The notes below the pieces were generated by a model. The model worked only from the letters and a program-made list of their open reading frames with translations. It made no database searches and was not told the DNA's origin. Shown piece by piece: positions 397-64,000 of a stretch of 64,000 nucleotides of DNA. Position 1 is the first letter of the stretch. Each line of letters opens with the position of its first letter. The stretch is from an uncultured Solirubrobacteraceae bacterium (GTDB lineage Bacteria; Actinomycetota; Thermoleophilia; Solirubrobacterales; Solirubrobacteraceae), in NCBI GenBank assembly GCA_963697725.1, contig OY969096.1:1947438-2011437 (forward strand). The letters are read 5' to 3'. Made by a program: the position numbers and the translations under genes.

Positions 397-1533
397 ATGG
401 GCGCGAGCGAGCCGCCGTCTCCCCGGCGATGGATCAGGCACCGGCGCGCGGGCGTGATCGTCGCGGCGATCCTGCTCGCCGGCCTGCTCGCGTTCGCGCT
501 CTCGCGCCTAGGCCTGCATCGGATTGGCCACGCACTCGTGACCGCAAGACCCGGCTGGGTCGCGCTGGCGTTCCTGCTGATGGCGAGTTCGCTGGTGCTG
601 CGCTCGATCTCCTGGCACCAGGTACTGCGCGCCGCGCTGCCCGAGACCCATATCCCCTGGCTCGCGGTCACGCGCGCGACGATGATCGGCGTGATGGGCT
701 CCGCCGTCGTGCCGGGCCGCATCGGCGAGCCCGCGCGCGCGGTCGTGATCACGCGCCGCTTGGACGGCTCGACGCGTCGCCAACTGCCGATCGTGGCCGG
801 CACCGTCTTCTCGCAGACGCTGATCAACCTGCTGGCGCTGGCGATCCTCGCGGGCATCACGTTCACGAGCGTGCCGCTGCTCAGCGGCCACCCCGCGGGG
901 ATCGCCACCGCGATCGCGATCCCGCTGCTGATCGCCGCGCTGGTCGTCGCGGGGCCGCGCCTGCTCGCGCTCGGCCAGCGCGCCCGCTCGCGGCGCATCG
1001 CTAGGTGGTCGGATGCGCTGGCCGGGGTGTTCGCGCTCGCGCGGCGCGGCCTGGTCGTGTTCGCGCGACCACGCTACGGCAGCACCGCGATCGGTGCCCA
1101 GCTACTCGCCTGGGCGCTGCAATGGCTCGCCTGCTACGCGGTGCTGCTGGCGCTCGGCCTGCAGCACAAGGCCGGGCTCGCCGCCGCCGCCGCGATCCTG
1201 CTAGCCGTCAACGTCAGCGCGATCCTGCCCGCGACCCCCTCGAACGTCGGCGTGTTCCAGGCCGCCTGCCTGGTCGTGCTCACCGCCTATGGGGTCGGCG
1301 GCGGGCAGGGTCTGGCCTACGGGATCATCCTGCAGGCCGTGGAGGTGCTGACCGCGCTCGGGCTCGGTATCCCCGCGCTGCTGGGCGAGGGCCTTACCTG
1401 GCGCGACATCCGCGCCGAGTCGCGGACCGAGGCCGAGCGCGCACGCACCGAGTCGATCGAGCTCGAGGCCTCAGAGGGAGCGCCCGAGGAGGCCGAGCCA
1501 GACGGAGTCTCAGCCGGCGATCGCGCGCAGTGA
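397..1533 (+). CDS. Lysylphosphatidylglycerol synthase TM-domain (UPF0104, flippase-like) membrane protein
   Basis: Many hydrophobic segments; PGRIGEPARA and PATPSNVGVFQ motifs; acidic tail; 24-bp convergent overlap with hpnH. Confidence 0.8.
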   Translation: MGASEPPSPRRWIRHRRAGVIVAAILLAGLLAFALSRLGLHRIGHALVTARPGWVALAFLLMASSLVLRSISWHQVLRAALPETHIPWLAVTRATMIGVMGSAVVPGRIGEPARAVVITRRLDGSTRRQLPIVAGTVFSQTLINLLALAILAGITFTSVPLLSGHPAGIATAIAIPLLIAALVVAGPRLLALGQRARSRRIARWSDALAGVFALARRGLVVFARPRYGSTAIGAQLLAWALQWLACYAVLLALGLQHKAGLAAAAAILLAVNVSAILPATPSNVGVFQAACLVVLTAYGVGGGQGLAYGIILQAVEVLTALGLGIPALLGEGLTWRDIRAESRTEAERARTESIELEASEGAPEEAEPDGVSAGDRAQ

Positions 1534-2511
1534 CTGACGCAAGGAGCTGGTCGTCTGCAGCACGGCAGTCGGCTCGTAGCCGCAGTGGGCCATGCAGTTT
1601 TCGCAGCGCGGGTCCTTGCCGCGACCGTACTTGTCCCAGTCGGTCGTCTCGATCAGCTCTTTGTAGGTCTTCGTGTAGCCGTCGGCCATCAGGTAGCAGG
1701 GACGCTGCCAGCCGAACAGCGAGTAGCTCGGGATGCCCCAGGCGGTGCAGTCGAATTCCGCCTTGCCCTCCAGGAAGTCCAGAAACAGCGGGCTGTGGTT
1801 CAAGCGCCACTTCTTGCGCCGGCCTTCGCTGAAGGCCTCCTTGAACAGCTTGCGAGTCTCGGTCACGCCGAGGAAGTGTTCTTGGTCGGGCGCTTTCTCA
1901 TACGCATAGGCCGGCGAGATCATCATTTCGTCGACTTCGAGGTCGTCGTTGAGGAAGTCGAGCACCTCGCGCACGGTCTTGGGCGAGTCCTGTGTGAAGA
2001 AGGTCGTGTTGGTCGTCACGCGGAAGCCTGCCGCCTTCGCGGCCTTGATCGCCGAGACCGCCTTCTCAAACACGCCCTCGCGCTCGACCGAGGCGTCGTG
2101 GCGCTCCTGCAGACCATCCATGTGCACGGCCCAGGAAAAGTAAGGGCTCGGCTTGAAGTTTTCGAGCTTCTTCTCCAGCAGCAGCGCGTTCGTGCAGAGG
2201 TAGACGAACTTCTTGCGTTTGATCAGTTCGTCAGCGATCACGTGAATCTCTGGGTGGATCAGCGGCTCGCCGCCCGCGATCGAAACCATCGGGGCGCCGC
2301 TCTCCTCGATCGCCCCGATCGCCTGCTCGACTGGCATCCGCCGGCGCAGCTCGTGCTCGGGGTGCTGGATCTTGCCGCAGCCAGAGCAGGCCAGGTTGCA
2401 CTGGAACAGCGGCTCGAGCTCGACGATCAGCGGGAACTTTTCGCGTTTGGCCAGACGCTGGCGCATCAGGTACCAGCCCATGCGCGTGCTCTGCCTGACT
2501 TTGGCTGCCAT
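1510..2511 (-). CDS. hpnH: Adenosyl-hopene transferase, radical SAM
   Basis: FPLIVELEPLFQCNLACSGCGKIQHP (CxxxCxxC), SIAGGEPLIHP, C-terminal CENCMAHCGYEP; inside hopanoid operon. Confidence 0.95.
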   Translation of the reverse strand: MAAKVRQSTRMGWYLMRQRLAKREKFPLIVELEPLFQCNLACSGCGKIQHPEHELRRRMPVEQAIGAIEESGAPMVSIAGGEPLIHPEIHVIADELIKRKKFVYLCTNALLLEKKLENFKPSPYFSWAVHMDGLQERHDASVEREGVFEKAVSAIKAAKAAGFRVTTNTTFFTQDSPKTVREVLDFLNDDLEVDEMMISPAYAYEKAPDQEHFLGVTETRKLFKEAFSEGRRKKWRLNHSPLFLDFLEGKAEFDCTAWGIPSYSLFGWQRPCYLMADGYTKTYKELIETTDWDKYGRGKDPRCENCMAHCGYEPTAVLQTTSSLRQSLRAIAG

Positions 2512-2521
2512 CGTTCGTACC

Positions 2522-3133
2522 TTAGCCCTCTGGGTCCCAGTCCTGAAGCGCGACCCTCGCAGCGTGGCGCAATGCCTGCGCCGCCTTTAGCGCCCCGCCT
2601 ACGGCCTGCACCCGAAAAAGCTCATGGCTGGGGCTGTCCAGCACGACCCGCACGACCGCGAACGGCCGCCCCGCCGCGCCGTCCGCGAGCCACGCCGACT
2701 CCATGTCGACCGCGAGCGCGCCCGCGGCGCGCAGCTGTTCGCGACGCTCGCCCGTGGCGATCTTACCCACGCCCACGATCGGCCCCGTGCGCACGATCAG
2801 CCCCGCGCGGTCGAGCGCGTCGCCGAGGCGTGCGGCGCCATCGCAGCGCGCCCGTACGGGGTCGCGGCCTTCGTCGCCGCTCGCCATCACCTCGTCGGCC
2901 ACGATCACTTCACCCGGGCGCGAGCGCTCGTCCAGACCACCGCAGAAGCCGAGCACCATCAGCGCATCGCCGCGTTCGCCGCGCAGCCGCTCCGCGGCGG
3001 CCAGCGACTTCTCGGGCCCCATCCCGGTCTTACGCACGTGCGCGCCGCGCGCGCCCGAGCGGATCAGCGCCTCCTCCACGCTCAGCGGGGCGGCTACCAG
3101 CACGTTGCCAATGCGGGGGGGCGACTGGCTCAC
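2522..3133 (-). CDS. hpnG: Hopanoid-associated phosphorylase/nucleosidase (PNP/MTAN fold)
   Basis: GFCGGL and AVDMESA motifs; GTG start at 3133 overlaps upstream TGA (GTGA); between hpnE and hpnH. Confidence 0.8.
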   Translation of the reverse strand: MSQSPPRIGNVLVAAPLSVEEALIRSGARGAHVRKTGMGPEKSLAAAERLRGERGDALMVLGFCGGLDERSRPGEVIVADEVMASGDEGRDPVRARCDGAARLGDALDRAGLIVRTGPIVGVGKIATGERREQLRAAGALAVDMESAWLADGAAGRPFAVVRVVLDSPSHELFRVQAVGGALKAAQALRHAARVALQDWDPEG

Positions 3134-4574
3134 GACGCTCCCACCGTCTCGGGCTCCAGCGTGCCCAGCGCGGCGCTCGCGGCCGCGTGCCCGCTCATCA
3201 CCGCGCTCTCGAGCGTCGCCGGCCAGCAGGTGTCGGTCCACGTGCCCGCCAGTGCTAGACCCGGCACGCGCGTGCGTGAGCTGGGGCGCAGCGCCGCGGT
3301 GCCAGGGCCCGCGCGGAACGTCGCCGCGTGCTCGCGGGTCGCCAGGAAGCGCTCCACCGTGGCGCCTCGCGCTCGCGGCAGCAGCTGCTCGATCGCGGGC
3401 AGGTAGCGCTCGCGCAGCGCCTCGACGCTCAGCTGCATCTCGTGCGCGGCGCCCGACAGCGAGACCGCGAGGTACTGGCAGCCCGGCGGCGCCTCCGCGG
3501 CGGCACTGCGATCAAACAGGTACTGCACGGGCGTATCCACGCCCGCCGCGAACGGCTGCTCGCACACAACCCGGTCATAGACGACGTGCAGGTTCACGAT
3601 CGGCGAGCTACCTAGGCCTTTGATCGCGCCGGCCGTCTCCGGCAGGAGCGGCTCGATCAGGCTCGCGGCGCGCGCGTGCGGCAGCGCGACGATCACGGCC
3701 TCGGCACTGAGGCCGTCACCGGTGTCAAAACCCTCCCCCCAGCCGCGCCCTCGTCGTCGGCCTCAGCATCGAGATGCCCTGCGGCTGGGGCACTTGGCGC
3801 GCCGCCCGCCCGGCCCTGGCCACCCTGCACCTCAAATCCACCCTCCGACCGTCGCAGCCGCTGCGCTCGCCAGCCGAGGCGAAACTCGACGCCGGCCTCG
3901 GCCAGCGCCGCCTGCGCCGGATCTCCAATCACGTCCGCGAGCGTCCCCACGTGGAACCCGATATCACCCGCATCCGCGCTCCCCAGCAGGCCGGTCTGGA
4001 ACACGAACGCGCCGAGCGCCAGGGAGGCCTCGGCGGCGGGCAGGTTGAGCGTGGGCAGCGCGATTAGGTCCCACAGCGCCGCCAGCGAACGCTCGTTCTG
4101 GCCGAGATCGGAGAGCCAGTCGCCGAGCGTTCGCTGATCGAGCGCCGGATCGCTCAAATCGAGCGCGCCGAGTGCCCGCGCCGCCAGCGCGGCGCTGAAG
4201 CGCTGCGCGGGGCTCAGGTGCGGATAGCGTGCCAGCGCGCCCGCCAGGTGCAGCGGCGGCGGCAGCGTGCCCCGACGTAGCACCACCGTCGGCTTGCCTG
4301 GGCTCAGCACCGGGATCTCCAGACGCTCCTGAACCGAGACGTGGTGCGCTGAGCCCAGCCGCTCCAGCAGCGCGCGGTAAGCAGTGCAGCAACGCAGGAA
4401 CACGTGCTGGCCGTTGTCCAGGCGCATGCCGTCGCGCTCGAAGGAGTAGGCCGCGCCGCCCAGTCGCCGCCTGACCTCCACCAGCGTCACCTTCGCGCCC
4501 GCGTCCGCGCAGTCGAGCGCCGCGGTAATCCCGGCGAGGCCGCCCCCGATCACGACCACACGATGAGCGCTCAC
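3130..4574 (-). pseudogene. hpnE: Hydroxysqualene dehydroxylase HpnE split by an apparent 1-bp frameshift (ORFs 3693-4574 and 3130-3696)
   Basis: 5' ORF has VIGGGLAGITAA and DNGQHVFLRCC; 3' ORF has SPIVNLHVVYD and LAGTWTDTCWPATLESAVMSG; frames join at a G6 run (C run 3735-3740); may be a sequencing error. Confidence 0.85.
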
Positions 4575-5509
4575 GTGCGGCCTCCCGCGATGCTGCGAAG
4601 CGCCACGAGCAGCTTCTCGCCGCCCGACAGCGAAGTGCGCGAGCTCAGCGCACGCGCGGGGTCCGCCTCGATCCGCTCCAGCAGCCGGTGGTAGATGCCC
4701 GCCATCGCCGAGACGCAGGCCGCGCTGCGTCGGTCAAGCAGCGGCACGAGCTGCAAGCCCCGGTCAAACCACTCCTGTGCACGCGCGGCCTGAAAGTGCA
4801 CGAGTTTCGCCAGCGCATCCCCCTCCCGGGCCGCCAGCTCGGCCAGCAGCCGCGCCGAGCGCGCCATCTCGACGGGCGCGACATCCTCGTCGTTGCCGAC
4901 CACGACGCCAAACCGGCGCAGGTCCTCCGCGGGTAGGTAGACGCGCCCGTTCTCCGCATCCTCGCGCACGTCGCGCAGGATGTTCGTCAACTGCAGCGCG
5001 ACGCCGAGCTCGTCGGCGAGCCGTTCCATCTCCTGCTGCTCGACCCCACCCTCGGCTCGCTTGGCGAAGATCGCCAGGCACACCCGCCCGATCGCGCCCG
5101 CGACCCGTCGGCAGTAGAGCACGAGATCCTCAAAGCGCTCGTAGCTAACCCCTTCGACGTCCATGCGCACGCCCTCGATCAGCTCCCCCAACGCTCCGGG
5201 CGGCAGCGAGAAGCGCCGATGCGCGTCCGCCAGCGCGATCAGCACGGGGTCCTGCGCGGGGACCGCGCCCGAGCGTTCGAGCTCGGCTAGCTGCTCCGCC
5301 CCCTCGTCCAGCAGCGTCAGCTTGCGACCGCGCTCGAGCTCGCCGTCGCCGATGTCGTCGATGCGGCGAGCGAACGCGTAGGCGGCGCACATCGCGCGCC
5401 GGCGCTCACGCGGGAGCAGGCGGATTCCGTAGTAGAAGTTGGCCGCCTGCGCGCGTGTGATCGCCTCGCAGCGGTCGTAGGCCTCGCTGGTGGAGATCGC
5501 GGGGCTCAC
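4571..5509 (-). CDS. hpnD: Presqualene diphosphate synthase
   Basis: NFYYGIRLLP, FARRIDDIGD, LQLTNILRDVREDAENGRVYLP. Confidence 0.92.
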   Translation of the reverse strand: MSPAISTSEAYDRCEAITRAQAANFYYGIRLLPRERRRAMCAAYAFARRIDDIGDGELERGRKLTLLDEGAEQLAELERSGAVPAQDPVLIALADAHRRFSLPPGALGELIEGVRMDVEGVSYERFEDLVLYCRRVAGAIGRVCLAIFAKRAEGGVEQQEMERLADELGVALQLTNILRDVREDAENGRVYLPAEDLRRFGVVVGNDEDVAPVEMARSARLLAELAAREGDALAKLVHFQAARAQEWFDRGLQLVPLLDRRSAACVSAMAGIYHRLLERIEADPARALSSRTSLSGGEKLLVALRSIAGGRT

Positions 5510-6408
5510 GCGGTAGACGGACCGCCCCCGGCGCGCGCGGCGCGGCGTCCGGCGAGGGTCGCGACGAGCGCGAGCAACCGGCGCGTCGAGGACGCCCGCG
5601 GCGGCCCTGAAAGCACTTCGTAGCCCGCGCGCTCGATCGCGTCGAAGGCCGCCCGCCCGCCCGCGGCGAAGGCGGCGACCGCCAGCCGCTCGCGACCACG
5701 CAGCTGCCCGATCAAGGGCGCGCCCTGATCCAGCAACCGCCGACCGCGCGCGACCTCAAACGCGAGCACCGCGCGCAGATCGCCGCCGCCGGATGAGCTG
5801 GCGGATGAGCCGCCGCCGACCTGCTCGGCCTCGCAACCGAAGCGCGCGAGGTCCTCGGCGGGCAGGTACACGCGCCCAGCGTCGTAGTCCTCGGCCACGT
5901 CCTGGCAGTGCTCGGCCAGCTGCAGCGCGGTGCAGATCGAGTCAGACAGCGCGATTCGCTCGGGGGTGGCGGCGCCGAAGACGCCGAGCACGATCTCGCC
6001 CACAGGGTTGGCCGATAGCGCGCAGTAAGCCCGCAACTGCTCCCAGGTCTCGTAGCGGCTAACGCGCTGGTCCATGCGGTTGGCCTCGATCAGCCGCCGA
6101 AACGGCTCCTGGGGCAGCCCACGGGCCCGTATCGTGACCGCGAGCCGCTGCATCAACGGATGCTGAGCGGCGCCCGCGTAGGCACGCTCCAGTTCGTCTT
6201 CCAGCCAGTCGAGCGCGACAAGCCGATCGCCCTCGCCGCTATCGCCCAGCTCGTCGACCAGCCGGGCGAAGCCGTAGACCGCGAGCAGATGCCCCCGCAC
6301 GCGCCGCGGCAGCGCCCTGCTGGCGACGGGGAAGTTCTCGGTCTCCGCGCGCGCCATCACCTCCCGCGCACTCGGGCCCGGCGGCGCGGCGTCGGCCAGC
6401 AGCATCAT
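5506..6408 (-). CDS. hpnC: Hydroxysqualene synthase
   Basis: ETENFPVAS, YGFARLVDELGD, LSANPVGEIVL, QDVAEDYDAGRVYLP; start trimmed to ATG 6408 just after the shc stop. Confidence 0.92.
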   Translation of the reverse strand: MMLLADAAPPGPSAREVMARAETENFPVASRALPRRVRGHLLAVYGFARLVDELGDSGEGDRLVALDWLEDELERAYAGAAQHPLMQRLAVTIRARGLPQEPFRRLIEANRMDQRVSRYETWEQLRAYCALSANPVGEIVLGVFGAATPERIALSDSICTALQLAEHCQDVAEDYDAGRVYLPAEDLARFGCEAEQVGGGSSASSSGGGDLRAVLAFEVARGRRLLDQGAPLIGQLRGRERLAVAAFAAGGRAAFDAIERAGYEVLSGPPRASSTRRLLALVATLAGRRAARAGGGPSTA

Positions 6409-6421
6409 CTCCGCCGCGCGG

Positions 6422-8359
6422 TCATCCCCGACAGCGGCCGAGCGCCATGATCGGGAACGCGAGACGGTACAGGTGATAGTTGATGTAGTAGTCAGAGGGG
6501 AAGCCCGTGCCGGTGTACTGCGGCTCGTCCCAGCCCCCGTCCGCGCGTTGGCTGCCCACCAGCCAGCTAATACCGCGCTCGATTGACGCCGCCGTCGCCG
6601 CACTCGCGGCGCCGATCTGCCCGTTCGCGCCCGACGAGCCCATGCCCGTTGAGGCGACCGCGTGCAACGCCAGCAGCGCCCAGCCGGTCTGCGAGGCGGT
6701 GCTCGGCCCGCGTCCGATCCACTCAACCTCGTCATAGGAGCGCGGATCCTCGCCCCAGCCGCCGTCTTCGTTCTGGTGCTCGAGCAGCCAGCGCACGGCG
6801 CGCGTGATACAGGGGTCAGATGGTTCGAGACCAGCTGCGATCAGCGCGGGCAGCGCGGCGCCAGTCCCGTAAACGTGGTTGACGCCCCAGCGCCCGAACC
6901 ACGAGCCGTCGTCCTCCTGCTGCTCGATCAGCCATTGCACGCCGCGGTGCCCCACAGGGGTGTCGATCCCGCCAAGCATCGCGAGCGCCTCGATCGCGTG
7001 CGCGCTGACGTCGGCGCTGGGCTCATCGATCACCTCGCCGAAGTCCAGGAACGGCAGCTCGCGCACGAGCGCCCTCGTGTTCTCGGCGTCAAACGCGCCC
7101 CAGCCGCCGTTCGCGCTCTGCATGCCCACCAGCCAGCGCGCCGCGCGATCGACCGCCGCGTCGAGCTTCGGGGTGCGGTTCAGACGGCGCAGTGCGAGCA
7201 CGACCTCGGCGGTGTCGTCGACGTCGGGGTAGTTGTCGTTCTCGAACTCAAACGCCCAGCCGCCAGGCTGAAGCTGCGGTCGGGCCACCGACCAGTCCCC
7301 GCGCACGGTCACCTCCTCGCCGAGTAGCCACTCACCCGCGCGCACGAGCGCGGGGTGGTCGGCAGGCAACCCCGCGTCGCTAAGCGCGATCAGCGACAGC
7401 GCCGTGTCCCAAACAGGTGACTGACACGCTTCCAGGCGGCGACTGGCGCCCACGGGCGCACCGACGCCGTGCTGGTCGTCGTGGTCCTCGACCATGAAGC
7501 GGTCAATTCCCTCCAGGCCACGCCGCATTACCGGGTGATCGATCGGGTAGCCGTTCAGGTGCAGGGCAATCAGCGAATAGACCCACGGCGGCTGGATCCC
7601 GCCCCAGGAGCCATCCGCCTCCTGGCGGCGGACGATCCAGCGCTCGGCGCGGGCGACCGCGAGGCGCTGCAGCGGACGGATCGGATGACGCTCATAAAAG
7701 CGCGTGACCGAGTCGAGCACCCGCAAGGCGCGCGAGCGCTCGGCACGGGCGTCAGCGCCGCCGTAGTCGAGCTCGTCGAGGTCGAACGGGAGTCGACGCG
7801 CCGGCCGGTGCGCTTTCACGAGCGACAGCGCGACGATCGTCTGGCGCGCCCAGCAGGCGAAGTCGTAGACGTTCAGCGGTACCCACGACGGCAGCAGGAT
7901 CACCTCCGGCGGCAGCGCCGGCACGCGGTCCCACGACCACAGCCCGAACAGCGCCAGCCACAAGTGCGTGAACACCCGCGCTCGCGCGACGCCACCCTGA
8001 GAGCGGATCCACTCGGCCGCGATCCGCATGTGCTCATCCGCGGGTGAGTCACCCGCCAGCCGCAGCGCCCAATAAGCCTCGATCGTCGTCGACAGCTCGC
8101 CCGGAGCCCCGTAGAAGTTTGCCCATGTGCCGTCGGCCCGCTGCTGCGAGCGAATCCAGGCCGCCGAGCGCTCGGTGCCCTCAGCCTCGCGCACGCCGAG
8201 GAACTCCCGCAGGAGCATGTCCTCGGCGTCCATCGTCACGTTCGTCTGCAGCTCTCCCTGCCACCAGCCGGCCTCGTCCTGAAGGGAGAGCAGGTACTCG
8301 CAGGCCTGCTGCAGCGCCACCTCAGCCTCGTTTCGGGCCTCTACTGTTGATGACGCCAT
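6422..8359 (-). CDS. shc: Squalene-hopene cyclase
   Basis: YPDVDDTAEV (DxDD), QW repeats (QRADGTW, QEADGSW, QEDDGSW, QNEDGGW), SPVWDTAL. Confidence 0.97.
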   Translation of the reverse strand: MASSTVEARNEAEVALQQACEYLLSLQDEAGWWQGELQTNVTMDAEDMLLREFLGVREAEGTERSAAWIRSQQRADGTWANFYGAPGELSTTIEAYWALRLAGDSPADEHMRIAAEWIRSQGGVARARVFTHLWLALFGLWSWDRVPALPPEVILLPSWVPLNVYDFACWARQTIVALSLVKAHRPARRLPFDLDELDYGGADARAERSRALRVLDSVTRFYERHPIRPLQRLAVARAERWIVRRQEADGSWGGIQPPWVYSLIALHLNGYPIDHPVMRRGLEGIDRFMVEDHDDQHGVGAPVGASRRLEACQSPVWDTALSLIALSDAGLPADHPALVRAGEWLLGEEVTVRGDWSVARPQLQPGGWAFEFENDNYPDVDDTAEVVLALRRLNRTPKLDAAVDRAARWLVGMQSANGGWGAFDAENTRALVRELPFLDFGEVIDEPSADVSAHAIEALAMLGGIDTPVGHRGVQWLIEQQEDDGSWFGRWGVNHVYGTGAALPALIAAGLEPSDPCITRAVRWLLEHQNEDGGWGEDPRSYDEVEWIGRGPSTASQTGWALLALHAVASTGMGSSGANGQIGAASAATAASIERGISWLVGSQRADGGWDEPQYTGTGFPSDYYINYHLYRLAFPIMALGRCRG

Positions 8360-20316: not shown

Positions 20317-21024
20317 CTAGGGCAGCGCCAGAGCGCCGCGCTCATCCGCGAGCGCGTTCGCGAGCCGGTCCTCGGTACCGAGTTCTGAGAGCTCGGTGCC
20401 CTGCGCGAGGGCGCGAGCTTCGGGCCCCTGCATGTCGTCGAGGTCGACCTCGTAGGTGTACCAGCAGAGCTCCCAGGCGAGCACGATCACGATCGAGCTG
20501 GCGACGGCCTCGCCGGGACGCACGGTCACCTCGGGGGCACCCAGCGAGCGTGTGAGGCTGGCGACGCGGCGTGGGTACTCGCCGATGTTGAAGATGTCCA
20601 GGGCGTTCTGCAGCGGCCCGGCGCTCGTCGGCTGGGCGGGCTGCTCGTGGGGCCCCGCCGAAGCGCCGTGCGCCTCGCCCGCGTCGAGGAAGTCGAACGG
20701 CTGCGCCTCCTCCCCATTCTGCGCAAAGACCGCGCCGCGGTCGCTACCCTCGCCCGCGGTCTCTGCGTCGGTGCGGCGCGACTGGCGCAGGCGTCCGAGC
20801 AACGAGCGCCCCCGGCCGGCGCGTAGCGGCGCGTGACCCAGCGCGTGCTGCTCGGAGCCTCGCTTCCAGCCCTGATGGGCGGCACGGGGCGCGCACAGCT
20901 CGCAGACGATCCGCGGTTGACCGGCGGCCAGGAAGGTGTCGGGCTGCTCGCCGCGCAGCAGACGACGTTCGCAGACGTCGCAGGCGACGTCGGGCTGCGA
21001 GGTGACGATCGATCGGGTTGCCAT
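20317..21024 (-). CDS. Hypothetical protein with N-terminal CxxC...CxxC zinc ribbon
   Basis: CDVCERRLLRGE...CELC; ordered C-terminal block EYPRRVASL...AWELCWYTYEVDL; TACCCT 7 nt upstream. Confidence 0.75.
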   Translation of the reverse strand: MATRSIVTSQPDVACDVCERRLLRGEQPDTFLAAGQPRIVCELCAPRAAHQGWKRGSEQHALGHAPLRAGRGRSLLGRLRQSRRTDAETAGEGSDRGAVFAQNGEEAQPFDFLDAGEAHGASAGPHEQPAQPTSAGPLQNALDIFNIGEYPRRVASLTRSLGAPEVTVRPGEAVASSIVIVLAWELCWYTYEVDLDDMQGPEARALAQGTELSELGTEDRLANALADERGALALP

Positions 21025-21098
21025 CCGCGGGAGGGTATCGGGCCGCCGCCCACTCGTGGCGCTTGCATCGGCAAACCCGCGCCATTACCTTGTGCGGC

Positions 21099-23186
21099 GT
21101 GAAGGCGGTTCTGCGCGGTGGGGGGAGGTGGTCGGCGCTCGCGGGCGGCGTCGTCGTCGCGTGCGCGTTGTGGGCGAGCGCGGCGGGCGCGGCGACGATC
21201 ACGGTCAACACGACCGAAGACGCGATCGCGAACGACGGGCACTGCTCACTGCGTGAGGCGATCACGGCGGCAAACAACGACCAGCCTTCGGGAGTCAAAG
21301 CAGGCGAGTGCGCCAAAGGCGAAGGCCCGGACACGATCGTGCTGCCCGCGGGGATCTACAAGCTGACGCGCTTCGGCGCGCACGAGGAGGCGAACTCGAC
21401 CGGCGACCTCGACCTGACGAGCGCGGTCACGATCCAGGGCGCGGGCAGCGCGAACACGAAAATCGACGGGGACGCCAACGAAGCGGGCAGCGCGAGCGAT
21501 CGCGCGATGGACATACACGGCGTGCGCGTGACGATCGAGGGCGTAATGATCAACGCGGCTCGTGCTCCCTCGACCGTCGCGGGCGACGAGGACGGCGGCG
21601 GCATCCTGATCCATGAAGGCTCGAGCGTGACGCTTCAGGAATCGCGCGTGATCGGAGACGTCGCGGGCAACGGTCCACTGGACCAGCGCGGCGGCAACGG
21701 CGGCGGGATCGCAAACGCGGGCACGCTGACGATCGCCGCCAGCGAAATCGCAGAAGACGTCTCCGGCACCTCGAACAGCGGGCCGGGCTTCCCGACGGGA
21801 ATCGGCGGCGGCATCTGGAACACGGGCACGCTGACGATCGAGGACAGCCTGCTGTTCGAAAACTTCACCGCGATCCGCTCCAGCGAAGACGTGATAGGCG
21901 GCGACGGGGGCGCGATTGCGAACAGCGGGCTGTCGCTGACGATCGACGCGAGCACGCTGAGCACGAACGGCACGAGCAAAGGGGGCGCGAACGGCTCAGG
22001 GGAGAAGCGCGGAGGAAACGGCGGCGCGATCCTCAGCACGGCAGGCGCGCTCAGCCTGAGCGGCTCGACCGTGACCGCGAATCGCACGGGTATGGGCGGC
22101 GGGATCTTCGACGGCGAAGACGGCGGCAGCGGCGGCGGTGTCGCGGTCGAAGGCGGCAGCGCGACGTTCGTGAACGACACCTTCAACGGCAACGCGACCG
22201 GGGCGGGCGGCAACGGCGACCTCGCGCCGCCAGAACAACAAGGCGGCGACGGCGGCCCAGGTGCGGCGATCGCGGCCACGGGCGGCAGCGTGCTCTCGCT
22301 CGCCAATTTGACGATTGCCGACAACCTGACGGGCGTCGGCGGCACGGGCGCCAAACCCGGCCGGCGAGGCAGTGGTGCGCTAAGCGTGGGCGGCGGCGCG
22401 AGCGCGAGCGTGCGGGGAACGATCTTTGCGAACAACGAAGGCGGCAACTGCGCGGGCGCGCCGGCCGACGGGGGTCACAACATCGCCTTCGGCGGCGGCT
22501 GCCCGGCGGGCTTCTCGGGCGGCGATCCGATGCTGGCGCCGCTGCAGGACAACGGCGGCCCCACGAGCACGATGGCGCTCGGCGCGGGCAGCGCCGCGCT
22601 CGATCAGCTCCCGCTGGGCGCCGAGTGCCCCGCGAGCGACCAGCGCGGCGTGGCGCGCCCGCAGGGCCCCGCCTGCGACATCGGCGCCTACGAGCTCGCG
22701 CCGACGCCGCCGATCTCCGCCCCCAGCCCGGTCACGACGCCCGGCACGACGCCGACACCACCGCCGTCGACCGTACGCCGCGTTGCACCGGCGCTGGGGC
22801 CGCTGACGCTCTCCCCCACCGCGTTCCGCGTGGCCAAGTCCGGCGCGAGCATCGCGAAACTCCAGCCGCAGGGGACGAGCCTGGGCTACAACGACAGCGA
22901 CGTCGCGACGACGACGTTCGCGGTGCTGCGCTCCCAGCGCGGGGTCCGCAAGCGAGGCCGCTGCGTCGCCCCGCCGAAGCACGGCGGCGGCGGGCGGCCC
23001 TGCAAGCGGTTCGTGAAGGTCGGCGCCTTCACGCACGTCGACAAGACGGGTCACAACGGCTTCCGCTTCACGGGTCGGGTCGGTGGCAGCGCCCTGAAGC
23101 CGGGGGCTTATGAGCTTGAAGCGACGCCGCGACTCGGCGGGCTGAGCGGCGCGGCACGCACGGCGCGCTTTACGATCGTTCGCTGA
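21099..23186 (+). CDS. Secreted CSLREA-domain, Gly-rich beta-helix protein with choice-of-anchor Q-like segment
   Basis: Signal peptide ending AGA; ITVNTTED...HCSLREAITAAN; GG(A/G)I repeats; DPMLAPLQDNGGPTSTMAL...DQRG...CDIGAYE; GTG 21099. Confidence 0.88.
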   Translation: MKAVLRGGGRWSALAGGVVVACALWASAAGAATITVNTTEDAIANDGHCSLREAITAANNDQPSGVKAGECAKGEGPDTIVLPAGIYKLTRFGAHEEANSTGDLDLTSAVTIQGAGSANTKIDGDANEAGSASDRAMDIHGVRVTIEGVMINAARAPSTVAGDEDGGGILIHEGSSVTLQESRVIGDVAGNGPLDQRGGNGGGIANAGTLTIAASEIAEDVSGTSNSGPGFPTGIGGGIWNTGTLTIEDSLLFENFTAIRSSEDVIGGDGGAIANSGLSLTIDASTLSTNGTSKGGANGSGEKRGGNGGAILSTAGALSLSGSTVTANRTGMGGGIFDGEDGGSGGGVAVEGGSATFVNDTFNGNATGAGGNGDLAPPEQQGGDGGPGAAIAATGGSVLSLANLTIADNLTGVGGTGAKPGRRGSGALSVGGGASASVRGTIFANNEGGNCAGAPADGGHNIAFGGGCPAGFSGGDPMLAPLQDNGGPTSTMALGAGSAALDQLPLGAECPASDQRGVARPQGPACDIGAYELAPTPPISAPSPVTTPGTTPTPPPSTVRRVAPALGPLTLSPTAFRVAKSGASIAKLQPQGTSLGYNDSDVATTTFAVLRSQRGVRKRGRCVAPPKHGGGGRPCKRFVKVGAFTHVDKTGHNGFRFTGRVGGSALKPGAYELEATPRLGGLSGAARTARFTIVR

Positions 23187-30735: not shown

Positions 30736-32427
30736 TCAGAGTGCTACCGCGCCCTCTGAGGCGCTCCCCACGAGCTTGGCGTACTTGCGGATCGCGACGT
30801 CGATGTGTTCGTCCGCGCGCGGCGGGCGCTCGTAGGCCGCAACCCGCGTCGCTATCTCCTCCTCGGCCAGCGCCACGTCCAGGCGCCCGGCATCGACGTC
30901 GATGCTCACCACATCGCCGGTGCGCAAGGCCGCGATCGGGCCGCCGCGAACCGCCTCCGGTGCTACGTGGGCGACCATGAAGCCATGGGTCGCGCCCGAG
31001 AAGCGCCCGTCGGTGATCAAGGCTACCTCCTCACCTAGACCCTCGCCCACGATCGCGGCGGTCACCGCCAGCATCTCGCGCATGCCTGGCCCGCCGGCGG
31101 GACCCTCGGCGCGGATCACCACCACGTCGCCCGCTTCGATCTCGTGCGCCAGCACCGCCGCCATCGCGGCCTCCTCGCCGTCGAACACACGCGCCGGCCC
31201 GGAGTGTTTGCGTCGCTCGTGCCCCGATAGCTTGACCACACAGCCATCTGGAGCCACGTTGCCGCGGAGGATCGCGAAACCACCAGTCGGTTTCAGGGGG
31301 TTCGACAGCGGGCGCACAACCTGCTGCCCCGCCGTCTCGCGCGCCTCGTCCGCAGCTTCGCCGATCGTTGCGCCACTCACGGTTGGCGCGTCCTCATTGA
31401 GGATGCCCGCCTGCTTCAGTCGCGCCAGCACCAACGGCACACCACCCGCTTCATACAGCTCAGTCGCCACGTACTGCCCGCCCGGCTGCAGGTCGCAGAG
31501 CAGCGGCGTACGCTCGGAGATTCCCTCGAACTCGTCGATCGTCAGCGGCACGCCCATTTCGCGCGCGACCGCCAGCAGGTGGAGCACGCCGTTGGTCGAG
31601 CCGCCGCTCGTCGCCACGGCGGCGATCGCGTTTTCTAGCGCGGGCTTGGTGATCACGTCGCTGGGCCGCTGCCCGCGACGCAGCACGTCCACGACTAGTT
31701 CGCCGCACTGCGTCGCCACCTCGAGCTTGCGCCCGTCCTCCGCCGGCACCATCGCCGAGCCAGGCGGGGAGATCCCCAGCGCCTCGAAGGCCATCGCCAT
31801 CGTATTCGCGGTGAACTGGCCGCCACAGGCGCCCGCACCCGGCGAGGCGGCCTCCTCCAGTTCGTGCAGCTCCTGCTCGGTGATCTTGCCCGAGGCGAAC
31901 TGACCCACGGCCTCGAACACCTGCTGGATCGTCACCTCCGCGCCTTTGAAGTGCCCCGGCTTGATCGAGCCGCCGTAGAGCATCAGCCCCGGAATATTCA
32001 GGCGCGCTAGCGCCATCACCGTGCCCGGGATCGTCTTGTCGCAGCCGGAGATCGTCACCAGCGCATCGAAGGCGTGGGCGCTTGCGACCAGCTCGATCGA
32101 GTCCGCGATCAGCTCGCGTGAGACCAGCGAGGCGCGCATTCCCGCCGTGCCCATCGTGATCCCGTCGGAGATCGCGATCGTATTCAGCTCCATCGGCGTG
32201 CCGCCCGCGGCGCGGATTCCCTCCTTCACCTTCGCCGCCAACACGCGGTTGTTGAAATTGCAGGGCATCGTCTCGATCCAGGAGTGCGCCACGCCCACGA
32301 TCGGCTTGGCCAGATCCTCGGCCGAATAGCCAATCCCATGCAGGTAGGCGCGCGCCGCCGCGCGCTCGGGACCCTCGGTCAGGGCGCGACTACGGTGCTT
32401 CAGATCGAACTCGGTGGCGGTGCTCAC
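30736..32427 (-). CDS. ilvD: Dihydroxy-acid dehydratase
   Basis: [47 protein letters not shown]. Confidence 0.97.
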
Positions 32428-33050
32428 GCGGCGCGCACGATATCTGGTGCACCCTCGCCGCCGGTCTCACGCTCCCAACGCGTGAGCCGCGCTAGGTCGC
32501 GCTTGACGCGCTCAGGGTCGATCTGACGACCCGGCAGATGCATGTTCGCCTGCGCAATCAGGCGGCGCTCGTCCGCGTTCAGCGCCATCCACTTTGCCAG
32601 CACGTCGTCGGAGTCCGGTAGACGAGCACTGCCGTAGGGGCGCGAGTGATCCGGAAACGCCACGCAGTACTCGTTCAAAAGCGCACCGGTCTGCGGGACG
32701 TAAGCCACGATCGGACGGTGCGGGTAGATCAGGTAGGCATAGGAGGCTCCCGCCGCCTGCGCGCGCTCACCTAGGCCGCCCCACACGCGCAGAAACCCCA
32801 GGTCGCGATACATCGCCCAGTCGCGCTCCTCGATACAGGAGCGCAGCAGCGCACGCGCACGCTGCTCCGCGCGGCGCTCGCGGCCCGGGTCATAACCCAG
32901 CGGTCCGGCTTCGCGACGACGCCGCGCCCGCTCTCGTAGCGTCTGGACCTGTGCGCGGGCGAGCGCGAAGCCGCGCAGAACTCGCGAGCGCGCCAACTCC
33001 CACAGCAGCACCACCAGCACGATCGCCGCCGTGCCCAGCGCCAGCAGCAT
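32424..33050 (-). CDS. Hypothetical protein with N-terminal TM helix and EYCV...[13 protein letters not shown] motif
   Basis: Protein-like ORF 4 nt after the upstream stop; its TGA overlaps the ilvD GTG. Confidence 0.8.
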
Positions 33051-33054
33051 CGGC

Positions 33055-33333
33055 TCAGCGAGGGGTCCGCGAGGGCGGCGTCAGCGGTGCTCCACCGGCC
33101 GCACGCGGGAAGAAGATCACGCGCTCGGCATCCCGCGGCACCTCGCCAAAGCTCTTGACCAGCTCCGCCTCGCGGCGTCCATCGCGACGCTCGGTCGGTA
33201 CTGCGGCCCACATGCCCGCGTCCAGCTCGCGGCGAAAGGCCTCGATTAGCCGCTGCTCCTCCTCCTGCACCTCGACGTCGCCCTCCGCCAGCAAGATCTC
33301 ACCATGACCCGGCTTCATCCGCAAAAGCTTCAT
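33055..33333 (-). CDS. Small hypothetical protein with near-terminal FFPRAAGG motif
   Basis: 92 aa; CATAAT 9 nt upstream; di-Gly followed by an 11-residue tail. Confidence 0.8.
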   Translation of the reverse strand: MKLLRMKPGHGEILLAEGDVEVQEEEQRLIEAFRRELDAGMWAAVPTERRDGRREAELVKSFGEVPRDAERVIFFPRAAGGAPLTPPSRTPR

Positions 33334-33380
33334 CGTGCTCGGATTATGGCAAACAGCATCCTGCGTACCGACCGCTCGGC

Positions 33381-34247
33381 CTAGGACTGCTGCGAGGCCC
33401 GCGCCTGGGCTCTGATTCGCGCCAGACCCAGGACGTCAACGGGGCCAGGCCCAGCGCCCACGTCCCGCAGCCCATCACGCACCGCCTCGCCTGCGAGTGC
33501 GCGCGCGATGCGAGCCGCCTGCAGCGGCGTAGATCCCAGGGCCAGCTGCGCCGCTAGCAGCGAGGAATGCGTGCAGCCCGAGCCGTGCGCCGCGCCGTCG
33601 GGGTGACGCTCGCCCTCGATCTCGACCGGTGCAGCACCTGAGGTCGACTCCAGAAACAGATCTACCGAACGCTGGCGATGACCTCCCGTCACAACAACGG
33701 CATACGGCCCGAGCTTCAGCAGGGCGCGCGTCAGCGCTTCGACCTCGCGGTCCTCATCGTCCTCCGGTTCCGCGGCAGATAGGCCGGAGGCGCCGACCAG
33801 GACGCGTGCCTCAGGCATGTTAGGAGTCAACACGCTCGCGCGGGGCAGGATCCGTTCGACCAGCACCGACTGCGCCTCGGTCTCCAGCAGCCGTGCGCCG
33901 GACTCGGCGACCATCACCGGGTCGACTACGACCGGCACCTCGGCCGGCAGCTCCGCAAGTGCCTGTGCGACCGCGCGAGCGCTTTCGACCGTGCCCAGCA
34001 TCCCAACCTTGACCGCATCGATCTTGATGTCCGCAAACACTGCACGCACTTGCGCGAGGATCGCCTCGGCCGGTACTGACTGCACAGCTTCGACACCAAC
34101 CGTGTTCTGCGCTGTGATCGCGGTGATCGCCACGGTCCCGTGCACGCCGCAGCGCGCGAACGCCTTCAGATCGGCCTCAATTCCCGCACCACCGCCGGAG
34201 TCCGAGCCCGCGATGGTAAGCGCCGTGGGCGTGCGCTCCTCCACCAC
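33381..34247 (-). CDS. thiD: Hydroxymethylpyrimidine/phosphomethylpyrimidine kinase
   Basis: [52 protein letters not shown]. Confidence 0.95.
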
Positions 34248-43246: not shown

Positions 43247-43273
43247 TTGAGCGCTCCGCCTGGATGCCGATAC
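43247..43273 (+). promoter_or_regulatory. Candidate sigma28/WhiG-type promoter TTGA-N15-GCCGATAC
   Basis: GCCGATAC ends 6 nt before ATG 43280; -35 matches TAAA at only 2/4. Confidence 0.4.
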
Positions 43274-43279
43274 GGAACC

Positions 43280-44857
43280 ATGGACAGCACACAGGGACCG
43301 TCGGGCGCCCACGTGCCCGCGTTGCGCCCTGCCGCCTGGCACCTGCCCAGGGTGAGGACGCGACGGCTGCTGTACCTCGGTCTGCTGCTGGGGGCGCCGC
43401 TGCTGCCACACCTGAGCAGCAACGTGTTCTTCTTCCCCGCCGTCTCCAACGGCTGGGTCTGCCTGCCCTTCTGCGCGCTGCTGCTACTGCCCCTGATTGA
43501 TCTGCGCTCGCTGCGGCGCCCCCTGGCGCTCGACCTGCTCGCGCTCGCCGCGCTGTCGATCTGCCTGGTGTGCTGGCGACAGTGGCGCGAGTGGCCGATG
43601 GTGCTCGCCTGTGCGCTGCTGCTCTATCTGGCGGCGCGCATGCTCGCGATTGCACGCACGCCCGATCGGCCCAGCGCGGCGAGCGCTCCCACCTCGGGGA
43701 GCGCGTCAGGCCCCGCCGACGCGAACCTGGACCGCGCGGCGCCCCAGGCACTTCAGCTCCCCAGCTCCTGGCTGCTGCTCGGCATCGCGGTGCTCGCCGC
43801 CGTCCACATTAGCTGGGCGCTCGCAGGGACCGCGCGCGTGGACGTCGGCGAAAGCGGCGTGCAGGGCGCACAGAGCATCCTGCACGGGGGTCCGCTGTAC
43901 GGACGGCTCGCCTCCGAAGCGCGCGTTGATCGCCATCTGGACACCTACGGGCCCGCCGACTACGAGGCCTACCTGCCGTTCGTGGGTCTCCTAGGGGGTG
44001 ACTACGGCGCGGCGCGGCTGACCACCGTGTTCTTCGACCTGCTAACCGCGCTCTTGTTGTTCCTGCTGGGACGACGCGTCAGGGGCCCGACGAGCGGAAT
44101 CGTGCTCGCCTACTGCTGGCTCGCGTTCCCGTTCACGCTGTACTGCGACGCGCTCGGCCTCAACGACCCAATTCTCGCGGCCGCGCTCGTCGGCACGCTG
44201 CTCGCAGCCGCCGCTCCGCTTCGGCGCGGTGCGGCGGCGGCGCTCGCGGTGTGGGTCAAGTTCAGCCCGCTAGCGCTGCTGCCGCTGCTGGCAACGCATG
44301 GAGCTAGTACTCAGGCCCGAGGCCGCGTACTGCGCTTCTGTTTCGCCCTCCTATTGGTGAGCGCGCTGCTGTTCATACCCGCGCTCCTACACGGCAGCCT
44401 CGCGACCTTCGCCTCGCGCAGCTTTGGCTTTCAGACCGGGCGCCCACCGTTCGTTTCGATCTGGTCGGTCCTGATCCAGCGATTCTCAGTCTCCGCACCG
44501 TCGATCGTGACCGCCTCCCGCGTCGCCCACGGCGTGCTCGCCGCGCTCACGGGCGCCCTGGCGCTCGCGCTGCCGCGCATTCGCCGACGCACCGATGTGG
44601 TTGGCCTGGCCGCGGCCTGCGCGGCGCTGATGATCGCGCTCGAGCTGTGCCTGAGCTACTACGCCTTTAGCTATGTGCTGTGGTTCGCGCCGCTGGTGCT
44701 CGTGGCGCTGATTCTCGACGCATTCCCTACCGAGCGCCAAGCTTCGGTGATGCGCGAGGACGCGGGCGGCTCAGGCGACCTCGGCGACCCCGGCCATCTC
44801 GGCCACCTCGTCGGCCACCTCCGCGGCCTGCGCCCGCTCAGCGGGCAATCGTCGTGA
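43280..44857 (+). CDS. GT-C glycosyltransferase, GT87/DUF2029-like
   Basis: HLDTYGPADYEAYLPF, LGLNDP, VKFSPL, many TM segments; antisense insertion between smc and ftsY with 87-bp 3' overlap on smc. Confidence 0.78.
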   Translation: MDSTQGPSGAHVPALRPAAWHLPRVRTRRLLYLGLLLGAPLLPHLSSNVFFFPAVSNGWVCLPFCALLLLPLIDLRSLRRPLALDLLALAALSICLVCWRQWREWPMVLACALLLYLAARMLAIARTPDRPSAASAPTSGSASGPADANLDRAAPQALQLPSSWLLLGIAVLAAVHISWALAGTARVDVGESGVQGAQSILHGGPLYGRLASEARVDRHLDTYGPADYEAYLPFVGLLGGDYGAARLTTVFFDLLTALLLFLLGRRVRGPTSGIVLAYCWLAFPFTLYCDALGLNDPILAAALVGTLLAAAAPLRRGAAAALAVWVKFSPLALLPLLATHGASTQARGRVLRFCFALLLVSALLFIPALLHGSLATFASRSFGFQTGRPPFVSIWSVLIQRFSVSAPSIVTASRVAHGVLAALTGALALALPRIRRRTDVVGLAAACAALMIALELCLSYYAFSYVLWFAPLVLVALILDAFPTERQASVMREDAGGSGDLGDPGHLGHLVGHLRGLRPLSGQSS

Positions 44858-53018: not shown

Positions 53019-53483
53019 CTAGCCGACTTCGGCAGGTTCGTCCTTGCCTTGGAGTCGCTCGCGACCGCGCTGCACGGCGGCAATGAACTTCGAAAGGTTG
53101 ACCTCGAGCGTGTTGAGAATCTCATCCGCGTAATCCTCAGCGCCCAGGCGAATCTCGCGCTCGCGGGCGCGAGCGTCCTCAACGATGTCCTCGGCGGCGC
53201 GCTCGGCCTGCTTGGTGACCTCCTCCTCGCCGACGAGTTTCTCCTGGCGCTCGCGCGCGTCCTTGATGATCCGCTCGGCCTCTTTCTTGGCCTCTGCGAG
53301 CATCTCCTGGCGCTCCTTGACGATCCAGCGCGCCTGCTTGATCTCCTCGGGGATCGTCGCGCGCATCTGGTCGAGGATGTCGTAGATCTCCTCCTTGTCC
53401 ACACGCACCTGATCGGTCATCGGCACCGATTTCGCGTTGTGCACGAGGTCGTCGAGCTTGTCTATGAGTACGAGGACGTCCAT
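53019..53483 (-). CDS. SepIVA/DivIVA-like coiled-coil protein
   Basis: LIDKLDDLVHNAKSVP, IPEEIKQARWIVKERQ, GAEDYADEIL; usual position between coaD and DUF177. Confidence 0.8.
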   Translation of the reverse strand: MDVLVLIDKLDDLVHNAKSVPMTDQVRVDKEEIYDILDQMRATIPEEIKQARWIVKERQEMLAEAKKEAERIIKDARERQEKLVGEEEVTKQAERAAEDIVEDARAREREIRLGAEDYADEILNTLEVNLSKFIAAVQRGRERLQGKDEPAEVG

Positions 53484-62727: not shown

Positions 62728-64000
62728 TCAGCGCGCACACCTGCCCCCGCGTAGGCGGTAGATCGTGATCGTGGGCCCCGGCCGGTGGTAGGCCAGCGGG
62801 TAGTAGTCGAAGCTCCAGTCAAAGCCGAACGGCACCGGACCCGCGCCGGCGGCGTAGGGCGAGGAGCGGAATACGACTTCGCCGCGTTCTTTCAGCGCGC
62901 GGTAGTAGGCGATCGCCAGCGGCACCGCGCGCGGATCCGCGAACGCCCGGCCCGACTGCGTGGAGCCACTTACGACCCAGCAGTAGCCGCGCTGTTCGTA
63001 GTAGTCCACCAGCGCCGGGCTCAGCGTGCGCACGTAGTTCTCAAGGCCCACGATCTTCAAGCCGTGTTCGAGCAGCGGGCCCGAGGGATCGCTCGGCGAC
63101 AGGCGGCTGACGAGGTCCGGGTACTTGCGCCACACGCCGGGGTTCTCGCTCGGCGGCACGCTGCCGGGGTACTCGCGCGCCCACCCGTCTGGCGAGATCG
63201 GCTCCGCCACGATCCGCGCGCGGCGCGGCAGGTTCTCGAGCATCCATTCGCGGGTGAGGTTGCGCGTGTCCGCGCGCGCCAGCACGAGCCCGGAGTGGAC
63301 GCTGTAGACGAGCCCTTGGGCCAGCAGCAGCGCCGCCAGCACGCCCGCCGCCGCGAGCCCCACGGCTCTGCGGTGCGGGCGGATCGCCGCAGCGATCCAG
63401 GCCGCGGCCTGTAGCGCGAAGAACGCCGCCAGCAGGCACAGCAGCGGCAGGATCGGCATCAGCCAGCGCCCGAAGTAGCGGCCCTGAAGGCCCATGAACG
63501 CCAGGAACAGGATCGGCGCGGGCACCAGCAGCCAACCGAGCGCCTGCCTGCGCCACCAGATCGCGACCGCGCCGCCGAGCGCCGCGAGCGCGGGCAGCCA
63601 ACCGAGGCCCCAGCTCAGCGACCACAGGTAGTAGACGAGGCCGCCCCGTTTCGGCGCGCCGAGCTTGCCCTGGGCTTCGGCCGAGAGCGAGGACTGGTGG
63701 ACCAGTTCCGCGTGAAAGGCCTTGTAGTCCAGTAGCCAGAAGGGGTTTGCCGCGAAGAAGGCCGCGAACGCCAGCAGCGCCATCAGCGCGACGCCGAGCG
63801 CGGCGTGCAGCAGGGGCTTCGAGCGCTCCTCGGAGTTGGTGCCAAGGCCGGGTTTGGATGCGGGGTCGGGGTCGGAGCTGGAGCCGGGGTTGGCCTCGGG
63901 GTCGGGTTCCGAGTCGCCCCGCCACAGGACGCGCGCCGCCACCGCGGCGATGAACGGCAGCAGCACGATCCCCGCGGTGTACTTGGTCGCACACGCCAGC
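62728..64000 (-). CDS. GT-C glycosyltransferase (GT39/ArnT-like), 5' end outside window
   Basis: Frame stays open to the window edge (LACATKYTAG); NPFWLLD, RYFGRWLMPILP, many TM segments. Confidence 0.75.
   Translation of the reverse strand, partial: LACATKYTAGIVLLPFIAAVAARVLWRGDSEPDPEANPGSSSDPDPASKPGLGTNSEERSKPLLHAALGVALMALLAFAAFFAANPFWLLDYKAFHAELVHQSSLSAEAQGKLGAPKRGGLVYYLWSLSWGLGWLPALAALGGAVAIWWRRQALGWLLVPAPILFLAFMGLQGRYFGRWLMPILPLLCLLAAFFALQAAAWIAAAIRPHRRAVGLAAAGVLAALLLAQGLVYSVHSGLVLARADTRNLTREWMLENLPRRARIVAEPISPDGWAREYPGSVPPSENPGVWRKYPDLVSRLSPSDPSGPLLEHGLKIVGLENYVRTLSPALVDYYEQRGYCWVVSGSTQSGRAFADPRAVPLAIAYYRALKERGEVVFRSSPYAAGAGPVPFGFDWSFDYYPLAYHRPGPTITIYRLRGGRCAR

Follow-up and report, generated by a model that had tools for sequence, protein, structure and literature searches.

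Carriers of the ThiS, CysO, QbsE and TtuB type include some with short tails beyond their terminal Gly-Gly (GG) and some that are covalently linked to a cysteine of a partner protein. The enzymes that serve such a carrier need not be encoded beside it: in Escherichia coli, moeB is unlinked from moaD. For a MoaD-MoaE fusion, likewise, the terminal glycine is exposed through trans cleavage by DR0402, a JAMM protease encoded elsewhere (PMC8832034). Bil/Bub-type operons encode E1, E2 and deubiquitinase together, often as mobile defence cassettes (PMC11601603, PMC1779556). The locus described here belongs to an uncultured Solirubrobacteraceae bacterium and lies within a stretch of 64,000 nucleotides (nt) of contig OY969096.1 (assembly GCA_963697725.1, positions 1,947,438 to 2,011,437), which is referred to as the window throughout. 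It comprises two small genes, A and B, which an earlier note made from the sequence alone had singled out. As that note described them, and as the list of open reading frames (ORFs) and the sequence confirm, A encodes 92 amino acids (aa) that run to a GG followed by an 11-aa tail, and an ORF of 208 aa, B, begins 4 nt after the A stop codon.

The findings suggest that A and B are a carrier or modifier pair of an undescribed, GG-dependent kind, probably a new GG carrier of the ThiS/MoaD type together with a Cys-dependent membrane partner. The best explanation overall, to which we would give even chances, is that A is a ThiS/MoaD-type (ubiquitin-fold) carrier and B its dedicated membrane-anchored partner. 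The earlier note had proposed much the same, namely a GG modifier or carrier with a membrane-anchored, Cys-dependent ligase or acceptor. What holds up of this proposal is the GG end, the coupling of the two genes, a MoaD-like strand in A, and a cysteine of B, Cys129, that is tied to A; what finds no significant support is a relationship of B to the E2 enzymes.

The A-B pair and the C-terminal end of A

Protein searches with A and with B each returned at least ~8000 matches, nearly all of them named "hypothetical" and all from metagenome-assembled genomes (MAGs) of Solirubrobacteraceae/Solirubrobacterales. B is present in at least 564 species-representative genomes of the Solirubrobacterales, and neither protein falls within a Pfam or NCBIfam family. 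The recurring unannotated gene pair to which the earlier note had likened A and B is real. Of the best 80 loci, 79 extend far enough upstream to be judged, and in all 79 A immediately precedes B. The order thiD-A-B-ilvD is nearly universal, and the pair occurs once, in the core chromosome. The expected co-occurrence of A and B is borne out to this extent, and the two genes are translationally coupled, but the pairing is not universal, since five B proteins, all of them divergent, have no A (hereafter A-less). An exhaustive search of 1.84 billion cluster representatives (50% identity) with a hidden Markov model (HMM) recovered only 349 clusters of B (E <= 1e-3), a good number of them frameshift chimeras; so small a number among so many representatives indicates that the family is lineage-restricted. 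Many long or "fusion" representatives at 50% identity turned out to be frameshift chimeras, in which A, B and ilvD are joined by translation in wrong frames (P0320, P0326 and P0332 are examples from P0241-P0390), and these were excluded; apparent fusions and non-Cys variants in this set need a check at the DNA level. In one MAG assembly (L023, about 5650-6550), A and B appear to be fused in frame into 298 aa. This fusion was not used as evidence, because its junction differs from that of relatives in a manner that fits a single-base indel and may be an assembly error.

In the window, A runs to ...ERVIFFPRAAGG (Gly80-Gly81) and continues with APLTPPSRTPR and a stop codon. Across 79 species-level loci, the core that ends at this GG is exactly 81 aa long. 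Column entropy in these loci is 0 bits over residues 71-81 (RVIFFPRAAGG), apart from 0.1 at R77, and from residue 82 onward it amounts to 1.2-2.8 bits. Conservation of the terminal GG, for which the earlier note had suggested a check, turned out to be complete: no A orthologue examined departs from it, the set comprising 84 tail-bearing-type or related loci and 77 distinct GG-ended sequences. The tails that follow are hypervariable and rich in Ala, Arg, Pro and Gly, and in the 84 loci (window included) their length ranges from 0 to 98 aa, with 0 aa in 2 loci, 1 aa in 11, 2 aa in 8, 3 aa in 12, 6 aa in 34 and 98 aa in 1. Some of them, up to 98 aa long, have been expanded by short tandem repeats (five copies of ETATRNGRVGPA, PQPG[MI] repeats, and TQTKA repeats), as seen in locus L045 and in proteins P0164, P0177, P0179 and P0143. 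The GG is the true C-terminus in the divergent lineages L087 and L089/L090. In a large sister clade, the DNA pattern FFP[RP]AAGG followed by TGA occurs in at least 120 metagenome contigs; the 80 of these that were examined yield 77 different A sequences, with lengths of 80-82 aa and with B next in the same gene order. Together, the invariance of residues 71-81, the collapse of conservation after Gly81 and the existence of natural GG-ended orthologues argue that the GG is the functional terminus of A, as it is in mature MoaD, ThiS and Urm1.

Judging from the orthologues that lack it, the tail is dispensable. The A stop codon lies within ~0-20 nt of the B start codon, or overlaps it, in essentially all loci, and it overlaps the B start in 20 zero-tail loci. 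Since the tail can be 0 aa long and its stop is always at the B start, it may be no more than a spacer that is translated so that A and B stay coupled. The earlier note had taken the tail for a propeptide processed by a protease. Cleavage after the GG is possible, but the tail need not be a propeptide at all.

A conserved region, a GG and a hypervariable C-terminus also superficially fit a long-leader precursor of the NHLP/Nif11-like type, that is, of a ribosomally synthesized and post-translationally modified peptide (RiPP), in which a leader of ~80 aa ending in GG would precede a hypervariable core that is cleaved and exported. This reading was rejected because zero-tail orthologues exist, and we regard it as highly improbable: tails measure 0-3 aa in 33/84 loci and are absent from the 120 or more contigs of the sister clade. 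Those tails that are present are rich in Ala/Arg/Pro/Gly rather than Cys/Ser/Thr, no NCBIfam leader family matches A, no maturase or peptidase-ABC exporter lies nearby, and a single-copy pair in the core chromosome does not suit such a precursor either. A kinship with Pup, a disordered protein of ~64 aa with a GGQ or GGE end, was rejected as well. Where a residue follows the GG it is A, R, S, C or T, and Q or E does not occur there; A is predicted to be structured; and no PafA/Dop was found among the Pfam-scanned genes of the window.

The closest resemblance of the A terminus is to MoaD. The last 21 residues of the A core, SFGEVPRDAERVIFFPRAAGG, align to residues 61-81 of E. coli MoaD, SFDHPLTDGDEVAFFPPVTGG, with GG on GG and 43% identity, and the core of 81 aa has the same length as E. 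coli MoaD. In profile-profile comparison, A against E. coli MoaD alone (its sequence taken from the genome record) gives P = 0.0038. A hhalign comparison of A with a five-member MoaD alignment, the other four members of which were entered by hand, gives a score of 22.5 (P about 1e-3, probability 22%), which none of 300 column shuffles reached (mean 10.0, standard deviation 2.1, maximum 17.8). Among 25 diverse A orthologues, ThiS is the top Pfam family by member count, with sub-threshold matches in four (best E 0.049), and one A homologue carries the automatic name "molybdopterin converting factor small subunit" (JGI). The low-confidence AlphaFold2 model of A follows the order strand-strand-helix-strand-strand-3-10-strand, as in the beta-grasp fold. 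By these comparisons it is MoaD in particular that the C-terminal strand of A is like, and A as a whole is a probable, not a proven, divergent member of the ThiS/MoaD superfamily.

Gene B and the cysteine patch kept with A

The N-terminal hydrophobic helix that the earlier note had read in B is confirmed by a Kyte-Doolittle plot (19-residue window), which gives 2.39 at residue 1 and at most 1.03 elsewhere, and so is the block YLIYPHRP...EYCVAFPD...AN. The helix is conserved in B alignments, A-less B proteins included. Residues 20-50 hold 10 Lys/Arg versus 2 Asp/Glu, and this excess after the anchor would, by the positive-inside rule, place the C-terminal domain of B in the cytoplasm. Searches of Pfam, NCBIfam and the PDB with single sequences and profiles found no relative of this ~145-aa domain, and for A they yielded only matches at noise level. 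The Arg/Glu-rich helix of residues 38-84 (about 32799-32939) draws weak matches to DUF6400, an actinobacterial family, in 7/26 B homologues (best E 5.6e-4). DUF6400 was judged spurious, as were the Imm51, troponin and NDUFA5 matches (E > 0.01) that came up in searches with A and B.

The most telling feature of B is a set of residues whose conservation follows the presence of A. Cys129 is invariant in B proteins with A upstream, in all 80 from the main clade and all 65 from the zero-tail clade (145/145), and it is also present in five extra divergent loci that contain A. In the five A-less B proteins it is replaced in every case, by S, D, A, H or R, and Phe132, Pro145, Asn169 and Gln176 are lost in them too. 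These five positions make up an A-dependent patch to which Asp134 and His171 belong in part. The invariance of the cysteine, which the earlier note had proposed to check, holds wherever A is present. Seventeen other invariant positions of B, including YLxYPH, DDxLxxW and E161, are retained in the A-less proteins, which do not form a monophyletic group in a rough neighbour-joining tree. In the zero-tail clade, Asn169 is conserved in 57/59, His171 in 54/59 and Gln176 in 57/58. Because Cys129 is kept with A and replaced without it, selection on the patch depends on A, which argues that Cys129 works with A.

What Cys129 might do with A can be read in more than one way. Its A-dependent companions, together with the cysteine itself, resemble the residue types of a papain-like catalytic set (Cys129, His171, Asn169, Gln176), as would be expected if B were only an A-specific cysteine peptidase or isopeptidase, engaged in tail trimming or deconjugation. 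Tails do exist in this clade, and no linked JAMM gene was found in the neighbourhoods searched. The zero-tail clade, however, keeps Cys129, Asn169, His171 and Gln176 though it has no tail to remove, and neither Pfam nor the PDB yields a match to a peptidase family; B as a mere peptidase is accordingly improbable.

A carrier-and-partner mechanism, in which we infer the fold, the activation and all of the chemistry, would run as follows. A and B would be made together, from a shared leaderless-type promoter and by translational coupling. The working end of A would be the Gly81 carboxylate, and the 11 post-GG residues of the window A would be an unconstrained extension, either trimmed or merely tolerated. 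A tail could be removed only by a protease encoded elsewhere, as happens with the MoaD-MoaE fusion; the trans cleavage of that extended MoaD (PMC8832034) is a precedent for an A protein with a C-terminal extension. The GG tail of A would be activated in trans by an unlinked E1-type adenylyltransferase, like MoaD by the unlinked MoeB, and activated A would then be passed to B and form a covalent intermediate with Cys129 at the membrane's inner face. Because Cys, Asn, His and Gln in one patch hint at acyl-enzyme chemistry, a Gly81-Cys129 acyl-thioester that is passed on to an acceptor is tentatively our first choice, with B E2-like in function and not necessarily in fold. The second choice, which we consider rather doubtful, is a sulfur relay through a thiocarboxylate or an acyl-persulfide, in which B would donate or use the sulfur. 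A more far-reaching version of the thioester scheme seems unlikely to a similar degree: a housekeeping, two-component transfer of a ubiquitin-like protein (Ubl), in which A, held as a thioester on Cys129 of a new-fold B, would be passed to membrane-proximal targets (proteins, or lipid or envelope precursors) without dedicated E1, E3 or deubiquitinase genes, the system being fixed in the core genome of one of the most abundant actinobacterial orders of soil.

A number of observations weigh against A as a carrier and B as its covalent partner. On the side of A, PF02597 gives no match at E <= 10 for the window protein or for 36 close homologues. The AlphaFold2 models of both proteins were built from shallow alignments and are of low confidence, with a mean predicted local distance difference test (pLDDT) score of 62.8 for A and a pLDDT of 57.6 for B, and a Foldseek search of the low-confidence A model against the PDB found nothing at E < 0.6, with scattered beta-grasp matches in the noise. 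The structure prediction that the earlier note had called for thus delivered the beta-grasp order of elements for A and no significant Foldseek match. Most A orthologues of this clade also carry a tail, which would block adenylation unless removed. On the side of B, no similarity to E. coli MoaE was found, and the E2-like character that had been surmised has no significant support. To the eye, B is reminiscent of E2/UEV proteins in its motif order, YPxxP ... D-V-L-x-x-W ... A-N-x-x-x-P. Foldseek of the low-confidence B model gave noise-level matches to TSG101-UEV, UbcH5 and RWD at E about 1, and a hhalign comparison of B with an E2/UEV profile, built from comparator sequences entered by hand, scored 14.3, a value reached by 38/200 shuffles. 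The sole local E2 alignment places Ser147 of B, not Cys129, at the position of the E2 cysteine, and B contains no HPN motif. An E2 relationship of B is a lead only, without statistical significance. As for enzymes that could act on A, the earlier note was correct that the window holds no E1/ThiF or JAB protease: none of the 50 Pfam-scanned genes has a ThiF/E1 or JAB domain, and tblastn with E. coli MoeB found no match in the window. The same applies more widely, as no E1/ThiF, MoaE or JAMM gene was found in 1.49 Mb from about 210 related neighbourhoods (+/-6 kb). Finally, ilvD follows B in most loci, A-less ones included. B stands immediately upstream of it, often with overlapping stop and start codons, also in the A-less lineages (L082-L086 and L092 were examined), and only in a few loci (L056, L068, L088, L089) is B followed by another gene. 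The persistence of this linkage without A implies some function of B, or some constraint on it, in which A plays no part.

Several of these points can be turned into support for the main rival, in which A would be a cytoplasmic subunit or regulator docked non-covalently on B, perhaps tied to IlvD, and no chemistry would take place. The GG would then be a flexible end inserted in a pocket of B lined by Cys129, like the MoaD tail in MoaE. Such a complex would tolerate tails of any length (0-98 aa, tandem repeats included) and could dispense with a linked E1 or JAMM gene, none of which was seen in the neighbourhoods searched; the translational coupling of A and B suggests a 1:1 complex, and the B-ilvD linkage that outlasts A is congruent with it. 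What it does not readily explain is the invariant 11-residue GG-ended segment, whose resemblance to the MoaD tail is a signature of adenylated carriers, nor the A-dependent cysteine, which in the company of Asn169, His171 and Gln176 looks reactive rather than like a packing contact. A purely non-covalent complex is, in our estimate, possible but somewhat unlikely.

Locus, promoter and surroundings

The coordinates of the locus are collected in the table. A and B are real genes: their G+C contents at codon positions 1/2/3 (0.76/0.49/0.80 for A, 0.77/0.52/0.79 for B) carry the coding signature of this 70% G+C genome. The two are translationally coupled and lie within the core chromosome as thiD-A-B-ilvD.

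Table. Features of the A-B locus in window coordinates
Feature	Coordinates	Strand	Remarks
Gene A	33055-33333	minus	92 aa
A conserved core, residues 1-81	33091..33333	minus	ends RVIFFPRAAGG
Codons Gly80-Gly81 of A	33091..33096	minus	invariant end of conserved core
A tail APLTPPSRTPR, 11 codons + stop	33055..33090	minus	sequence and length unconstrained
Gene B	32424-33050	minus	208 aa; membrane anchor, Arg-rich juxtamembrane helix and ~145-aa conserved cytoplasmic domain (predicted)
B hydrophobic signal-anchor helix, residues 2-19	32994..33047	minus	Kyte-Doolittle
B patch, residues 129-176, kept only with A	32523..32666	minus	Cys129 codon 32664-32666
GTGA overlap of B stop and ilvD start	32424-32427	minus	
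Promoter-like element GTTTGCCATAATC	33342..33354	minus	TGn-extended -10; CATAAT = 33343-33348
thiD	33381-34247	minus	adjoins A upstream
ilvD	30736-32427	minus	directly downstream of B

The CATAAT hexamer that the earlier note had taken for a -10 element of the pair is present and recurs: TGnCATAAT is found upstream of A in 77/88 loci (L001-L093 set), and its commonest distance to the ATG is exactly 9 nt. In the window, GTTTGCCATAATC likewise ends 9 nt 5' of the A start codon. A spacing this short implies a leaderless or nearly leaderless mRNA, and the recurrence of the motif implies that the pair has its own putative conserved promoter inside the thiD...ilvD gene string. A two-hexamer -35/-10 rule found no passing pair upstream of A. 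A riboswitch or other RNA element in this position is unsupported, with no match to an Rfam family. There is no transcript evidence for the locus, the sequence of which is contained in only three soil DNA runs. In eight loci (L006, L008, L009, L010, L016, L023, L025, L028) and about 10 further ones, a duplicate of ~32 nt from the 5' end of A lies between the promoter motif and the true start, the copy having degenerated in others. In several loci this duplication creates an upstream ORF of 11 codons, for example MKLLRLKPGLR*, the TGA of which overlaps the A start (ATGA).

Across the window, ftsY, ffh, rpsP, rimM, trmD, rplS, lepB, rnhB, yraN, a thioesterase gene and thiD are followed by A, B, ilvD, a hydrolase gene, xerC/D, a sigma factor gene and fusA. 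In the A-less locus L083, thiD directly abuts B, which indicates that adjacency to thiD belongs to B rather than to A. Elsewhere in the window, a hopanoid-type cluster on the minus strand (1510-8359) comprises genes for a radical-SAM/DUF3463 protein, a PNP-family phosphorylase, an amine-oxidase-type flavoprotein, two squalene/phytoene synthases and a squalene-hopene cyclase, and it is followed by two membrane glycosyltransferase genes (PMT_2 and GT87). Long, coding-like ORFs with no Pfam match at E <= 1e-5 lie at 21018-23186 and 43247-44857 on the plus strand and at 62728-63966, 20317-21024 and 53019-53483 on the minus strand.

Comparison with known systems

In soil, the Solirubrobacterales rank with the most abundant actinobacteria and with the least studied. 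Within them, a pair that occurs in hundreds of species-level genomes and thousands of metagenomic proteins, and that is more conserved than many housekeeping genes, has gone without a family assignment. If A is indeed a GG carrier or modifier and B a membrane-anchored Cys protein, the two would represent a new architecture in the world of ThiS, MoaD and ubiquitin, and a minimal, vertically inherited module unrelated to phage defence. The natural contrasts between tail-bearing and zero-tail clades, and between lineages with and without A, offer ready-made experimental controls.

Of the described systems, Bil/Bub-type operons (E1-E2-JAB-Ubl) share with the pair a GG-ended Ubl, a Cys-containing protein and post-GG tails (PMC11601603, PMC1779556). 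In contrast to these operons, A and B form a vertically inherited two-gene core module in an rplS-lepB-rnhB...xerC neighbourhood, and an E2 fold of B is unproven. As A would do, ThiS, CysO, QbsE and TtuB serve in housekeeping or biosynthetic settings as small beta-grasp carriers with a terminal GG (Iyer et al. 2006, PMC1779556). Genes for their E1, JAMM or user enzymes usually form a cluster with the carrier gene, whereas none was found within +/-6 kb of the pair in about 210 loci. Urm1, the SAMPs and TtuB are ThiS/MoaD-like proteins that can carry sulfur as a thiocarboxylate and can also modify other proteins, and A is ambiguous in the same way; they differ from A in having a known E1 (Uba4, UbaA and TtuC) and no dedicated membrane-anchored Cys partner. 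There are several likenesses to MoaD/MoaE. The core of A, too, has ~81 aa and ends in ...D-x-[DE]-x-V-x-F-F-P-x-x-x-G-G, and in both cases the gene for the small protein is directly followed by, and coupled to, that of its partner, with the E1 (MoeB) unlinked in E. coli. Unlike MoaE, B is membrane-anchored and bears an essential-looking cysteine, and no moa genes lie nearby.

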